Shown here one piece after another: positions 48,052 through 52,310 of a DNA stretch of 64,000 nucleotides. The DNA comes from Nitrospirota bacterium (GTDB lineage Bacteria; Nitrospirota; UBA9217): NCBI GenBank assembly GCA_029858565.1, contig JAOUEV010000001.1:156678-220677 (forward strand), read 5' to 3'. Position numbers and translations under genes: made by a program. Every line of letters starts with the position of its first letter. Positions within the stretch are counted from its first letter, which is position 1. The notes beneath the pieces are model-generated. The model saw only the letters and a program-made list of their open reading frames with translations, was not told the DNA's origin and made no database searches.

Positions 48052-49242
48052 TCAACCTCGAACTTCCCTGAACTTCTTGATCATCTCCGTCAGGACCTCG
48101 GTGACATCGCCCACGATGCCGTATGTCGCAACGTTGAAGATCGGCGCGTCGGGGTCCTTGTTGATGGCCACGATCGTTTCCGACGACTGCATGCCGGCAA
48201 CGTGCTGGATCGCGCCAGAGATGCCGCAGGCGATGTACAGCTTGGGGCAGACCGTCTTGCCGGTCTGCCCCACCTGGTGGGAGTAGGGGATCCACCCCTC
48301 GTCAACGGCCCCGCGGGTTGCGGCGACCGCGCCGCCCAGGACCTTGGCGAGTTCTTCAAGCAAGAGGAAGTTCTTCCGGCTTCCCAGCCCCCGTCCGCCT
48401 GCCACGATGATGTCCGCCTCGCAGATGTTCACGGTCTCGGTCAGCTCATCGACGGTCTTGAGCACCTTCGTGCGGACCGGACCGGAAGGCGTGTATTTCA
48501 CGTCGATGATCTCGCCCTTGCGGGAGTCGTCCCGCTGCGCAGGCTTCATGACCTTGTGGCGCACCGTGGCCATCTGGGGCCGGTGATTGGGCGTCACGAT
48601 CGTGGCCATGATGTTGCCGCCGAAGGCCGGACGGGTCTGGTGCAGATGGCCGGTGGCGTCATCGATATCAAGCATGGTGCAGTCCGCAGTGAGGCCCGCG
48701 TAGAGGGTCGACGCAACCTTGGGGAAGAAGGAGCGGCCGATGGCAGTCGCGCCAGCAAGGATGATCTCGGGTTTGTGCTGCTGTGCAAGCGCAGTCAGGA
48801 CCGCTGCGTAGGAATCGTCATTAAAATGTTCCAGCGCCGGGTCATTGCAGACGTACACGGCGTCCGCGCCATGGGCGATAAGCTCCTGTGCCTTGCTGCT
48901 GATCCCGGACCCGACGAGCACGGCCGAGAGCTTTGCCTTTTTCTTGTCTGCAAGCTTCCTGCCTTCGCCCAGAAGCTCGATGGACACGCTCGCGATACTG
49001 CCTTTATGCTGTTCAGCAAACACCCATACGCCCTTGTAGGCTGACAGGTCCTTTGCCGGACCGGTCGCTTCGATGGTCTTCTCAATGGCCTGGAACTGGC
49101 ATGCCTCGACGCAGGCGCCGCACATGGTGCAGGCATCGGTGATGACGGCCTTGCCGTCCTTCATCTCGATAGCGCCGAAGGGGCAGGCGGAAACACAGGT
49201 TTCGCAGCCGGTGCAGATATCCGGTTTGACTTTCACGCTCAC
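48052..49242 (-). CDS. etfA: Electron transfer flavoprotein alpha with N-terminal 2[4Fe-4S] ferredoxin domain
   Basis: [12 protein letters not shown] and [38 protein letters not shown]. Confidence 0.95.
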
Positions 49243-49261
49243 GACGAACTCCTTGAAATTT

Positions 49262-50047
49262 CTAGATCAACGATTGTTCCTTGAGTTTTTTAGCAACTGC
49301 CGCCACCTGGTCGGCCACAGAGCCGGAGAGCATCTCGCGGCCCCCGCGGGGCGCAGGGGGGAAGATCCTGACGACCTGGGTCGGCGAGCCCTTGAGCCCG
49401 AGCTTGTTCTCGTCGGCGTTCACGTCCTTGGCGCTCCAGGCGGTCACCTTGAGGCTCTTGGCCTTCATCTTGCCCTTGAGCGAAGGGACGCGGGGCTGGT
49501 TGATCTCTTTCACCACCGTGATCAGGCAGGGGAGCGAGGTCTCGACGACGTCGTAGCCCTCGTCCATCATGCGCTCAACCACCATGGTGTCGTTCTCGAC
49601 CTTCTCGATCTTCCTTATATAGGCTATGAAGGGGATGCCGAGCATGTCCGCGGTCTCAGGACCCACCTGCGCGGTGTCTCCGTCAATGGCCTGCTTTCCC
49701 GCGATCACGAGGTCGTACTGGCCGATCTTCCGGATCCCCATGGAAAGGGCGTAGGAGGTCGCCCAGGTGTCTGCGCCGGCGAATGCCCGGTCCGACAGGA
49801 GCACCACGTCGTCCACGCCGAGCGAGACCGCTTCCTTGAGCGCTTCCGCGGCCTGGGGAGGCCCCATGGTAAGGGCCGTCACCTTGCCGCCGTGCTTCTC
49901 CCGCAAGCGGAGCGCTTCTTCGATGGCGAACATGTCAAAGGGGTTGATGATGCTCGGCACACCGTCGCGGATAAGGGTGTTGGTTTCCCGGTTGATCTTC
50001 ACTTCCGACGTGTCCGGGACCTGTTTGACCAGAACGATGATGTTCAT
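49262..50047 (-). CDS. etfB: Electron transfer flavoprotein beta
   Basis: KQVPD, INPFD, MGPPQA, FAGADTWATS, QAIDGDTAQVGP. Confidence 0.95.
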   Translation of the reverse strand: MNIIVLVKQVPDTSEVKINRETNTLIRDGVPSIINPFDMFAIEEALRLREKHGGKVTALTMGPPQAAEALKEAVSLGVDDVVLLSDRAFAGADTWATSYALSMGIRKIGQYDLVIAGKQAIDGDTAQVGPETADMLGIPFIAYIRKIEKVENDTMVVERMMDEGYDVVETSLPCLITVVKEINQPRVPSLKGKMKAKSLKVTAWSAKDVNADENKLGLKGSPTQVVRIFPPAPRGGREMLSGSVADQVAAVAKKLKEQSLI

Positions 50048-50066
50048 ATATCTGTTCTCCGAATGA

Positions 50067-50092
50067 GGGCGGCCACGCGGGGCCGCCCCTAC
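50067..50092 (-). repeat. GTAG-type REP palindrome
   Basis: Minus strand GTAG-GGGCGGCC-ccgcgt-GGCCGCCC. Confidence 0.7.
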
Positions 50093-50105
50093 TGGCGTCT
50101 TGCGG

Positions 50106-51263
50106 TTATTTCTGCCTTGTCGCTTCCTTGACCATGTCGAGGCCGATCACGGTGCGCTGGATCTGGTTGGTGCCCTCGTAGATCTGGAGGATCTTGGCGT
50201 CGCGCATCATCTTCTCGACGGGGTATTCCTTCATATAGCCCGAGCCGCCCATCACCTGGACAGCGTCGGTGGTGACTTTCATTGCCGTGTCGGTAGCGAA
50301 GAGCTTGGCCATTGCCGATGCGCGGGAGAAGTCTTTGGCGCCGCTGTCGATCATCCGGGCGGCGTTGTAGACCAGGGAACGGGCCGCTTCGGTCATGGTC
50401 TGCATGTCCGCGAGCATGTGCTGGACCGCCTGGAAGGAGGTGACCGGCTGGCCGAACTGGACCCGGCCCTTGGCGAACTTGATGCACTCGTCGATGGCGC
50501 CCTGGGCAACGCCGACGCCCTGGGAGCCCACGCCTGCGCGGGAACTGTCGAGGGTCTTCATGGCCACGATGAAGCCCATGCCCTGCTTGGCGATGAGGTT
50601 CTCCTTGGGGATGCGGCAGTTGTTGAAGATGAGCTCGGTCGTGGAGGACGACCGGATGCCCATCTTGTTCTCCTTCTTGCCGAAGGTAAAGCCCGGGGTG
50701 CCTTTTTCCACCACAAAGGCCGACGCGCCGCGGGGGCCTCTGGACTTGTCCGTAATGGCGATGATGGTGTAGATGTCCGCCTCACCGCCGTTGGTGATCC
50801 ACTGTTTCGTGCCGTTCACGACATACTCATTACCTTCGAGCTTTGCCGTGGTCTGAATGCCGCTCGCGTCGCTGCCCGCATTCGCCTCGGTCAGGCCGAA
50901 AGCGACCAGCTTTTTGCCCGCTGCGATGTCGGGCAGATATTTCTTCTTCTGTTCATCGGAGCCGAAGAGCAGGATGGGATAGGTGCCCAGCGCGTTGGCC
51001 GCGTAGGTCGTGGAGACGCCGAGGCAGGCCTTGGAGATCTCCTCGATGGCGATGTAGAAGTCGAGGGTGCCCCGGCCCATGCCGCCGTATTCCTCGGGGA
51101 TGTAGAGGCCCATGAGGTCGGCCTGCGCCATGGCCTTCATGATGTCCGTGGGGAACTTGTTATGTTCGTCCAGTTCCGCCCGGACAGGAACGATCTTCTC
51201 GACCGCGATCTGACGGGCCAGATCACGGATCATCAGTTGTTCTTCGGTCAGCAAATAATCCAT
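50106..51263 (-). CDS. Acyl-CoA dehydrogenase (Bcd-like)
   Basis: LTEANAGSD, GTKQWITNG, KMGIRSS, RVQFG, GGSGY, IYEGTNQIQR. Confidence 0.93.
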   Translation of the reverse strand: MDYLLTEEQLMIRDLARQIAVEKIVPVRAELDEHNKFPTDIMKAMAQADLMGLYIPEEYGGMGRGTLDFYIAIEEISKACLGVSTTYAANALGTYPILLFGSDEQKKKYLPDIAAGKKLVAFGLTEANAGSDASGIQTTAKLEGNEYVVNGTKQWITNGGEADIYTIIAITDKSRGPRGASAFVVEKGTPGFTFGKKENKMGIRSSSTTELIFNNCRIPKENLIAKQGMGFIVAMKTLDSSRAGVGSQGVGVAQGAIDECIKFAKGRVQFGQPVTSFQAVQHMLADMQTMTEAARSLVYNAARMIDSGAKDFSRASAMAKLFATDTAMKVTTDAVQVMGGSGYMKEYPVEKMMRDAKILQIYEGTNQIQRTVIGLDMVKEATRQK

Positions 51264-51329
51264 TACAGCCTCCGCGCTACAGAATTTTTATAAAAAGAGA
51301 TGAACCCGGATGAATTCTTGTTTTGTCGG

Positions 51330-52310
51330 TCACCAGCGGATCAGCGCCGATGCCCAGGTCAGGCCGCCGCCGAAGGCTTCGAGCAGGAGGAGGTCGTTGT
51401 CCTTGACCTTGCCTTCGCGGACCGCTTCGTCCAGCGCCATGGGGATCGATGCGGCCGAGGTGTTCCCGTACTTGTGGATCGTGAGCATGACCTTTTCCAT
51501 GGGCATGTTCAGCCGCTTGGCCATTGCCTGGATGATCCGGAGGTTCGCCTGGTGCGGGATCAGGAGGTCTATCTCCTCGGGCTTTACTTTATTGTGGGTC
51601 AGCGCCTCTTCCACCACCTCTTCAAGCGCGCGCACGGCGACCTTGAAGGTCTCGTTGCCTTTCATCTTGATGTAGTGCTGCCTCCGCTCGACAGTGTCGG
51701 CGGTCGCGGGATGGGCCGCGCCGCCCGCCGGGATGTGCAGCAGGTCCCCGAAGTTCCCGTCGGAATGGAGATGGGTCGAGAGGACCCCGCGCTTGCCCGC
51801 GTGGCGCTGGAGAACGGCCGCGCCGGCGCCGTCACCGAAGAGCACGCAGGTCGTGCGGTCCTCCCAGTCAGTGAACCGGGAGAGCGCCTCGGCTCCCACG
51901 ACGAGGATGGTCGTGTACATGCCGCTTTTGATGAAGGCGTCGGCGATGGAAATGCCGTAGAGGAATCCGGAACAGGCTGCATAGACGTCAAATGCCGCCG
52001 CTTTCTTGGCATGGAGCTTGGATTGGAGCACGCAGGCCGTGCTCGGCATGGCCGTGTCCGGCGTGAGCGTGCCCACGATGATCAGGTCGATGTCCTGGGC
52101 TGCGATGCCCGCGGCCTTGATCGCCTTGTGGCCGGCCTCGTAGGCGAGGTCCGATGTGGTCTGGCCTTTTTCGCAGACCCGCCGTTCCCTGATCCCCGTG
52201 CGTTCCACGATCCAGTCGTCGCTCGTCTCGACCATCTTCTCGATGTCGTGGTTGGTCAGCACCTTTTTTGGCGCGTAGGACCCGGTTCCGATAATACGTG
52301 CGTGGATCAT
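51330..52310 (-). CDS. fabH: 3-oxoacyl-ACP synthase III
   Basis: AACSGF, LFGDGAGA, PHQANLRII, YGNTSAAS, FGGGLTW. Confidence 0.96.
   Translation of the reverse strand: MIHARIIGTGSYAPKKVLTNHDIEKMVETSDDWIVERTGIRERRVCEKGQTTSDLAYEAGHKAIKAAGIAAQDIDLIIVGTLTPDTAMPSTACVLQSKLHAKKAAAFDVYAACSGFLYGISIADAFIKSGMYTTILVVGAEALSRFTDWEDRTTCVLFGDGAGAAVLQRHAGKRGVLSTHLHSDGNFGDLLHIPAGGAAHPATADTVERRQHYIKMKGNETFKVAVRALEEVVEEALTHNKVKPEEIDLLIPHQANLRIIQAMAKRLNMPMEKVMLTIHKYGNTSAASIPMALDEAVREGKVKDNDLLLLEAFGGGLTWASALIRW

Follow-up and report, generated by a model that had tools for sequence, protein, structure and literature searches.

In bacterial fatty-acid synthesis, the pace is set by enoyl-acyl carrier protein (ACP) reductase, and no other step has as many non-homologous solutions (FabI, FabL, FabK, and FabV). 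Which enzyme carries out this step in a Nitrospirota bacterium (lineage UBA9217, assembly GCA_029858565.1) is the question raised by a stretch of 64,000 nucleotides of its contig JAOUEV010000001.1 (positions 156,678 to 220,677), hereafter referred to as the window. As noted in a first-pass annotation made from the sequence of the window, no enoyl-ACP reductase gene is found there. Instead, the fatty-acid synthesis (fab) operon includes the genes acd, etfB, and etfA for an acyl-CoA dehydrogenase (ACAD) and two subunits of an electron transfer flavoprotein (Etf). Such ACAD/Etf trios are used by anaerobes to reduce crotonyl-CoA while charging ferredoxin. Based on comparison of sequences and genomes, we consider it fairly probable that in these organisms enoyl-ACP is reduced by this trio, in an Etf-dependent and probably electron-bifurcating way, and the genomic argument for this candidate role is strong.

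The genes of the operon and its promoter are located in the window as follows.

54157..54185, minus strand: sigma-70-type promoter TTGACA-N17-TATAAT, 5' of yceD (12/12 consensus matches)
53597..54154, minus strand: yceD (PF02620, 88.5 bits)
53406..53588, minus strand: rpmF, ribosomal protein L32, 60 aa (open reading frame; same-position copies in relatives are 75-97% identical)
52307..53320, minus strand: plsX (TIGR00182, 397.8 bits, over cutoff)
51330..52310, minus strand: fabH (TIGR00747, 463.6 bits, over cutoff)
50106..51263, minus strand: acd, 385 aa, butyryl-CoA-dehydrogenase-like flavoenzyme, candidate catalytic subunit of the enoyl-ACP reductase (three ACAD Pfam domains)
49262..50047, minus strand: etfB, 261 aa, bifurcating type (top five PDB matches are all bifurcating Etfs)
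48052..49242, minus strand: etfA, 396 aa, CarE-like, with N-terminal 2x[4Fe-4S] ferredoxin domain (Fer4, ETF, and ETF_alpha domains)
33124..33861, minus strand: fabG (TIGR01830, 341 bits, over cutoff)
32829..33065, minus strand: acpP (open reading frame; DSLD motif; 75-96% identical in relatives)
31466..32725, minus strand: fabF (TIGR03150, 672 bits, over cutoff)

Thus, the order on the minus strand is the consensus promoter, yceD, rpmF, plsX, fabH, a gap of 66 bp, acd, etfB, and etfA; fabF is followed by rnc. The gap between fabH and acd contains a GGAGG ribosome-binding site 5 nt ahead of the acd ATG. In a consensus scan of positions 42000-55500, no promoter-like or terminator-like site was found from yceD to the end of etfA on the minus strand. 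The first promoter-like site beyond that of yceD (11/12 matches) is located past etfA, at 47820-47791. Hence the placement of the trio 66 bp past fabH on the same strand, the gap without a promoter-like site, and the consensus promoter ahead of yceD (54185-54157), all noted in the first-pass annotation, were borne out. An Rfam search of positions 30000-56000 gave a chance match only.

Trio and known enoyl-ACP reductases across genomes

The genome assembly is 100% complete and consists of 144 contigs. No FabI was found in it: the best match to the FabI model NF005717 is FabG (66.5 bits), and searches for short-chain dehydrogenases/reductases (SDRs) gave FabG and three unrelated SDRs. Nothing in the genome scores over the cutoff for FabL. 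No FabV was found with PF12242 in this genome or with PF12241 in the 151 Nitrospirota genomes of the census given below; this absence is weakly shown, because the control genomes gave no match either. FabK is also missing, as the sole protein of the NMO family scores 111 bits against a cutoff of 453 bits. FabH, FabD, FabG, FabZ, ACP, and FabF are all present in the genome, and type II fatty-acid synthesis (FAS II) thus lacks only the reductase. A normal enoyl-ACP reductase encoded elsewhere in the genome, which had been named as an outcome that would speak against the proposal, was not found for any of the FabI, FabK, FabL, and FabV types.

Conservation of the gene order was analyzed in 20 loci around Acd orthologs from 20 relatives. 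In 18 of these loci, fabH is located directly 5' of acd-etfB-etfA, and 14 loci run on through fabD-fabG-acpP-fabF. Three loci stop at the end of the contig or of the fetched region, and one, in the genome G019, has an insertion. In two loci, belonging to families f4 and f11, acd is located away from the fab genes. The ancestral order fabH-acd-etfB-etfA-fabD-fabG-acpP-fabF, deduced in the first-pass annotation, is therefore fully confirmed, being complete in the 14 loci. This genome is not alone in having the linkage, which recurs in its own family, in family f3, and in many other phyla. Acd proteins are 82-92% identical across genera of the own family and 65-71% identical across phyla, a degree of conservation reminiscent of housekeeping genes.

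The census included 151 Nitrospirota genomes, whose families are numbered from f1, the family of the studied genome; proteins with at least 71% identity to Acd were counted as orthologs. Acd orthologs (71-100% identity) were found in 68 genomes belonging to families f1, f3, f4, f11, f12, f13, f15, f16, f18, f20, and f22. In another seven genomes, nothing closer than paralogs of 44-47% identity was found. True FabI (224-342 bits) was found in 64 genomes, all of them among the 83 genomes without an Acd ortholog. In contrast, no true FabI (at least 224 bits) was found in the 68 carriers of Acd, where the FabI model gave only one weak SDR of 151 bits. This is the anticorrelation for which a survey of gene neighborhoods had been suggested. 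FabL over the cutoff was found in none of the 151 genomes.

Genes of the NMO/FabK family are missing in 17 of the 68 carriers, including all 9 genomes of f16; in most f16 genomes, Acd is the single ACAD candidate. Exactly one EtfA was found in each of the five carrier genomes tested. The 3-hydroxyacyl-CoA dehydrogenase domain was found in none of the 37 genomes of nine carrier families. The single ACAD and EtfA and the missing dehydrogenase domain speak against a role of the trio in β-oxidation or butyrate metabolism.

A direct counterpart of the trio was found in two sister families. In f2 and f7, the operon has the order yceD-rpmF-plsX-fabH-X-fabD-fabG-acpP-fabF; position X is filled by a true FabK, with 487 and 478 bits against the cutoff of 453. 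The same operon slot holds FabK in these families and acd-etfBA in others, and the two thus replace each other. Given that in sister lineages its slot belongs to FabK, the trio is the probable catalyst of the final reaction in every round of elongation, by a route that is undescribed and may save energy.

To look beyond the phylum, a single genome was scanned for each prokaryote species; of the 569 relatives obtained, the best 80 (65-91% identity) were analyzed. The fab genes are located beside acd in 41 of these 80 loci, 37 with etfBA and 4 without. At least five fab-linked arrangements were found, the most frequent being fabH|acd-etf|fabD (12 loci), fabH|acd-etf|fabG (11 loci), and fabF|acd-etf (3 loci). 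The fab-linked loci are labeled as Deltaproteobacteria, Thermodesulfobacteriota, Margulisiibacteriota, Saganbacteria, Actinomycetota, Omnitrophota, and Rokuibacteriota, among others. Another 14 loci, mostly from Bacillota, have stand-alone acd-etfBA trios amid unrelated housekeeping genes, and 25 loci, mostly from Thermodesulfovibrionales, have acd alone. Genes for thiolase, crotonase, or hydroxyacyl-CoA dehydrogenase were found within 5 kb in none of the best 80 loci (the positive control worked), so no linked route to or from enoyl-CoA is present there.

In the 22 non-Nitrospirota genomes with a fab-embedded module, neither true FabI nor above-cutoff FabK was found; weak SDRs of 147-157 bits were detected in two of them. 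The complete chromosomes of an Omnitrophota and a Deltaproteobacteria representative contain neither FabI nor any NMO gene. In a quick maximum-likelihood tree, which largely tracks taxonomy, a long branch (1.26, SH-aLRT 100) sets all 81 orthologs apart from the 45% paralogs.

These distributions bear on the explanation that the linkage is meaningless, having arisen by selfish or neutral insertion of the trio into a fab operon that was then inherited. The operon studied here did tolerate a 13.7-kb insertion of unrelated propionate-pathway genes. However, with at least five fab-linked arrangements over many phyla, very high sequence conservation, and a distribution complementary to those of FabI and FabK, we consider this explanation extremely improbable.

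Some further proteins were observed during these searches. SDRs scoring 142-157 bits on the FabI model were found in some carriers of the module (G105:C22:210774-211529, G164, G182, and G185); their scores fall between those of FabG (about 65 bits) and true FabI (at least 224 bits), and they may be a divergent reductase class. A class of NMO-family proteins of 315-330 aa is marked by the motif CxxCxxxCxxxxC and reaches 195 bits against the FabK model (L113:10164-11144, L134:10194-11153, L152, and L153). Its gene shares the fab operon with acd-etfBA in an actinobacterium (L113) and in a representative of Margulisiibacteriota (L134). In the studied genome, a second FabG-like SDR is encoded within contig C70:8921-11253 (L006:801-3133); it is flanked by a bioF-like and a bioD-like gene, which points to a function in pimelate/biotin synthesis. 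Additionally, a single reading frame of 2359 aa on contig C105:8043-15122 (L067:1044-8123) contains ACAD middle and C-terminal, ETF, and ETF-alpha FAD domains. It may encode a giant fused ACAD-Etf protein or may be a long chance frame in GC-rich DNA.

Protein type, predicted reaction, and substrate

As expected for the Bcd/SCAD branch of the ACAD superfamily, Acd contains the domains PF02771 (127.9 bits), PF02770 (96.9 bits), and PF00441 (171.7 bits). Its best PDB matches are butyryl-CoA dehydrogenase (Bcd) of Clostridium difficile (5ol2_C, 432 bits) and its counterpart from A. fermentans (4l1f, 412 bits). The residues Y361-E362-G363 of the YEGT motif are invariant in 19 orthologs; the Glu of this motif is presumably the catalytic base, as in the ACAD (MCAD/BCD) literature. 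No homology was found between Acd and the FabI/FabL SDRs, the FabK NMO family, or FabV, as Acd matches ACAD models only. Acd is outside the known enoyl-ACP reductase families, and the claim made here is therefore only that it works like them.

The Etf type was assigned by similarity to solved bifurcating Etfs as opposed to canonical AMP-containing ETFs. The top five PDB matches of EtfB are 6fah, 5ol2, 7koe, 7qh2, and 4kpu (216-276 bits), whereas the canonical ETFs of human, Paracoccus, and Methylophilus score 57-93 bits. EtfA scores 285-416 bits against solved bifurcating or confurcating Etfs and 140-162 bits against canonical ETFs. It aligns over its full length with CarE (6fah_A, 416 bits), including the N-terminal 2x[4Fe-4S] domain of the CarE/LctC subtype; the Fer4 domains are located at residues 3-56, and both CxxCxxCxxxC motifs align to CarE. 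All the motifs listed in the first-pass annotation, namely NPFD, AGADTWAT, and DGDTAQVG in EtfB and RPAFGG together with the two N-terminal CxxCxxCxxxC motifs in EtfA, were read in the translations. By these similarities, the Etf is of the bifurcating type, and because of this family membership the trio is probably electron-bifurcating.

We infer that Acd, EtfB, and EtfA form one complex, that this complex acts on acyl-ACP rather than acyl-CoA, and that it bifurcates electrons to ferredoxin. In the proposed reaction, NADH would reduce the bifurcating FAD of EtfB. One electron would pass through the FAD of EtfA and the FAD of Acd to trans-2-enoyl-ACP; the other, at low potential, would reach ferredoxin via the [4Fe-4S] domain of EtfA or directly. 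Each elongation round would then yield reduced ferredoxin, and the large free-energy drop of enoyl reduction would not be wasted. The first-pass annotation had proposed two roles for the trio. The first one, an energy-conserving enoyl-ACP reductase, is strengthened by the equivalence with the FabK slot and the complementarity with FabI, while the use of ACP and the bifurcation are carried forward as predictions. The second one, supply of primers for FabH, gained no support, as the genes for thiolase, crotonase, and hydroxyacyl-CoA dehydrogenase are missing near the best 80 loci. A complex prediction for an Acd dimer with two FAD molecules and AcpP, made without controls, gave a score of 0.00 and counts neither way.

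Several observations weigh against an enoyl-ACP reductase role of the trio. The complementarity with FabI and FabK has exceptions: of 10 Bacillota genomes with orthologous stand-alone trios, 6 have a true FabI as well, such a trio occurs together with a true FabK in the genome G163, and FabK-like proteins of 260-358 bits were found in 4 of the 22 genomes with a fab-embedded module. In families f4, f11, f13, f15, and f16, the orthologs are not located beside fab genes. The split between FabI and Acd follows deep clades and hence reflects few independent events. In family f17, represented by seven near-complete or closed genomes (e.g., G107, G114, and G135), neither FabI, nor a gene of the NMO/FabK family, nor an Acd ortholog was found. 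An unrecognized reductase must therefore exist in the phylum, and arguments from absence are weakened. Acd itself resembles an ordinary butyryl-CoA dehydrogenase, and no feature of its sequence was shown to favor ACP. No Acd-ACP or Acd-Fab fusions were found among the best 120 of 165 longer homologs, which is a weak negative; the fusions found there, all with at most 53% identity, include ETF, rubredoxin, a second ACAD, and unrelated domains. The remaining observations of this kind favor one of two other explanations.

According to one of them, Acd-EtfBA works on CoA thioesters like Bcd-EtfAB, either reducing short enoyl-CoA so that FabH receives butyryl-CoA or other short acyl-CoA primers, or acting as the acyl-CoA dehydrogenase in the recycling of fatty acids with FadD/FadA/FadB, and its linkage with the fab genes is co-regulation with lipid metabolism only. 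The closest characterized relatives of Acd are indeed CoA enzymes (5ol2_C, 4l1f, and CarC), and Acd scores 475 bits on the AcrC model. No ACAD gene belongs to the fadD-fadA-fadB cluster of the genome, and Acd might therefore take part in β-oxidation as well; a FadB-like protein with the 3-hydroxyacyl-CoA dehydrogenase domain was found in this genome and in 24 of the 27 f1 genomes. The coexistence with FabI in Bacillota and the propionate-CoA ligase-like gene directly downstream of the trio point in the same direction. On the other hand, hydroxyacyl-CoA dehydrogenase is absent from the 37 genomes of nine ortholog-bearing families, and none of the best 80 loci contains a gene for thiolase, crotonase, or hydroxyacyl-CoA dehydrogenase. 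As for the propionate block, it was inserted late and occurs in 3 of 41 genomes (see below), and β-oxidation could be served by the separate, putative 2359-aa fused ACAD-ETF protein. Moreover, this explanation would leave these genomes without any enoyl-ACP reductase. We consider it unlikely.

According to the other explanation, the true reductase is a different, unrecognized protein, either an SDR or a FabX-like enzyme working reductively with ferredoxin, and Acd-EtfBA has an accessory redox role in lipid synthesis, such as dehydrogenating acyl-ACP to form unsaturated fatty acids or providing an enzyme of this kind with reduced ferredoxin. The protein that brings FabX into question is the sole NMO-family protein of the genome (contig C86:6775-8019, 414 aa). 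It was rejected as a FabK and assigned as FabX-like, since in addition to its low score on the FabK model it aligns over its full length to FabX structures (7e1q/9lt5) with 222 bits, compared with 60-81 bits for FabK structures. It has four Cys residues in an insert, only the last of which aligns exactly with a FabX Cys. According to the published report on Helicobacter pylori FabX (PMC8626469), this enzyme is an acyl-ACP dehydrogenase/isomerase with an Fe-S domain in place of the NAD(P)H motif of FabK, and its [4Fe-4S] cysteines are C300, C304, C308, and C320.

The FabX-like, putative Fe-S flavoenzyme occurs in the studied genome and throughout the 27 f1 genomes, which makes it a candidate for the actual reductase. 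The Cys-motif NMO proteins in the acd-etfBA fab operons of L113 and L134, the case of family f17, and the action of H. pylori FabX on acyl-ACP (PMC8626469) are also in line with such an enzyme. However, no NMO gene is present in the 17 Nitrospirota carriers mentioned above or in the two complete chromosomes from other phyla. In the studied genome, the FabX-like gene is located in an unrelated neighborhood, formed by a sigma-54 two-component system and Usp genes, and in the sister families the slot of acd-etfBA is filled by FabK rather than FabX. We regard a hidden reductase of this kind, with an accessory role for the trio, as distinctly improbable.

If the trio does act as an enoyl-ACP reductase, this role may extend well beyond the studied family. 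We tentatively suggest that many strict anaerobes end each elongation round with a bifurcating enoyl-ACP reductase composed of an ACAD and a ferredoxin-fused Etf, gaining one reduced ferredoxin per C2 unit. This wider proposal, which is possible but far from assured, would include Thermodesulfovibrionia, many Thermodesulfobacteriota/'Deltaproteobacteria', Margulisiibacteriota, Saganbacteria, Omnitrophota, and some Actinomycetota/Bacillota.

The methylmalonyl-CoA block downstream of etfA

In the studied genome, the fab operon is split by a 13.7-kb block (window positions 34332-47820) with a complete methylmalonyl-CoA pathway, its own fabD, and its own promoter. The genes of the block are separated from etfA by a gap of 405 bp, and the promoter of the block lies within this gap. 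The following features were found in the block and next to it.

47791..47820, minus strand: promoter of the inserted block, TTGACA-N18-TATAGT (11/12 matches; conserved in G019)
45751..47646, minus strand: propionate/acetate-CoA ligase-like gene, first gene of the block (NF007815, 779 bits, below the cutoff of 955)
44726..45568, minus strand: fabD2, intact malonyl-CoA:ACP transacylase, replacement brought by the insertion (TIGR00128, 349.9 bits; cutoff 260.9)
35092..44704, minus strand: sucC, sucD, methylmalonyl-CoA epimerase-like gene, mcm, meaB, pccB, and pccA (NCBIfam and Pfam matches)
33994..34170 (about), minus strand: relic of the ancestral fabD, about 60 codons (tblastn with FabD of relatives)

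The block also includes a gamma-carbonic-anhydrase-like gene on the opposite strand. The fabD relic, described in the first-pass annotation as a mark of the old gene position, proved to be real: it aligns with 53% identity to residues 127-190 of FabD from the relatives and contains an in-frame stop. The intact second fabD within the block was absent from that account. This gene, fabD2, is the only fabD of the genome, and its product is 37-41% identical to FabD of the relatives. Orthologs of fabD2 (87-88% identity) were found in only 2 of 40 relatives, G019 and G003. Both of these genomes lack the ancestral fabD type, which is retained in two genomes of the same genus. G019 shares the insertion and the promoter and has its own fabD relic. 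In total, the propionate block was found in 3 of the 41 genomes of the relatives search, with the studied genome counted. Because fabD2 is divergent and confined to G019 and G003 among the relatives, and because the relic remains, the block is interpreted as a late insertion that replaced fabD and cut the operon past etfA.

The leader of about 145 nt between the promoter of the block and the CoA-ligase gene contains a 12-bp hairpin followed by a T-run (47731-47760, minus strand). The leader is partly conserved in G019 and has no match in Rfam; its hairpin and T-run could be an attenuator. The possibility that PccAB of the block is the sole carboxylase was ruled out by the AccA-, AccD-, and AccC-like genes found elsewhere in the genome.

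Significance and comparison with known systems

In a literature search, which did not include supplements, no description of an ACAD/Etf enoyl-ACP reductase was found. In the main text of a 2022 review of all known enoyl reductases (PMC9260719), the terms acyl-CoA dehydrogenase, electron transfer flavoprotein, and ferredoxin are all absent. If the proposed role is true, the trio would represent a sixth class of enoyl-ACP reductases, one without homology to the rest, and Etf bifurcation would have its first anabolic use. Flavin-based electron bifurcation would thereby extend from catabolism into core biosynthesis, and anaerobes would recover energy from an anabolic step that is run wastefully by other bacteria. 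In addition, the "missing enoyl reductase" gap would be closed in many uncultured anaerobic lineages, and annotation pipelines would gain a rule for a missing enoyl reductase.

The prolyl-peptidyl carrier protein (PCP) dehydrogenases PigA/RedW and the acyl-ACP dehydrogenase MbtN resemble the proposed enzyme in having an ACAD fold that acts on a phosphopantetheine-tethered thioester. This fold thus acts on carrier-protein thioesters, which was counted in favor of an enoyl-ACP reductase role for Acd. Unlike members of these groups, Acd scores far below the cutoffs of the corresponding NCBIfam models (247-255 bits for the prolyl-PCP dehydrogenases and 73 bits for MbtN). PigA/RedW and MbtN are oxidative enzymes of secondary metabolism, and to our knowledge they have neither an Etf partner nor a link to primary FAS II.

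CarCDE of Acetobacterium woodii (6FAH) provides the closest structures for both Etf subunits, with 276 bits for CarD and 416 bits for CarE. With 323 bits, however, CarC is a poorer match to Acd than either Bcd. CarCDE reduces phenylacrylyl-CoA in caffeate respiration, which is not a lipid intermediate.

Bcd-EtfAB (C. difficile 5OL2; A. fermentans 4L1F/4KPU) has the same three-protein make-up as the trio. In addition to the similarity of Acd to both Bcd chains (432 and 412 bits), the Etf subunits match the respective Etf chains (EtfB with 245 and 216 bits, EtfA with 285 and 315 bits), and Acd retains the Glu of the YEGT motif. In contrast to Bcd-EtfAB, the trio is encoded in a fatty-acid synthesis operon and not with genes for thiolase, crotonase, and hydroxybutyryl-CoA dehydrogenase, its EtfA bears an extra ferredoxin domain, and it is proposed to act on enoyl-ACP of any chain length rather than on crotonyl-CoA.

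FabK, the FMN-dependent enoyl-ACP reductase II, differs from Acd in fold, being a TIM-barrel protein of the NMO family with no homology to the ACAD fold. FabK takes its hydride straight from NAD(P)H, and no energy is conserved. The two systems are nevertheless alike in their genomic position, as FabK of families f2 and f7 occupies the identical fabH-X-fabD slot, and the acyl-chain reaction proposed for the trio is equal to that of FabK.

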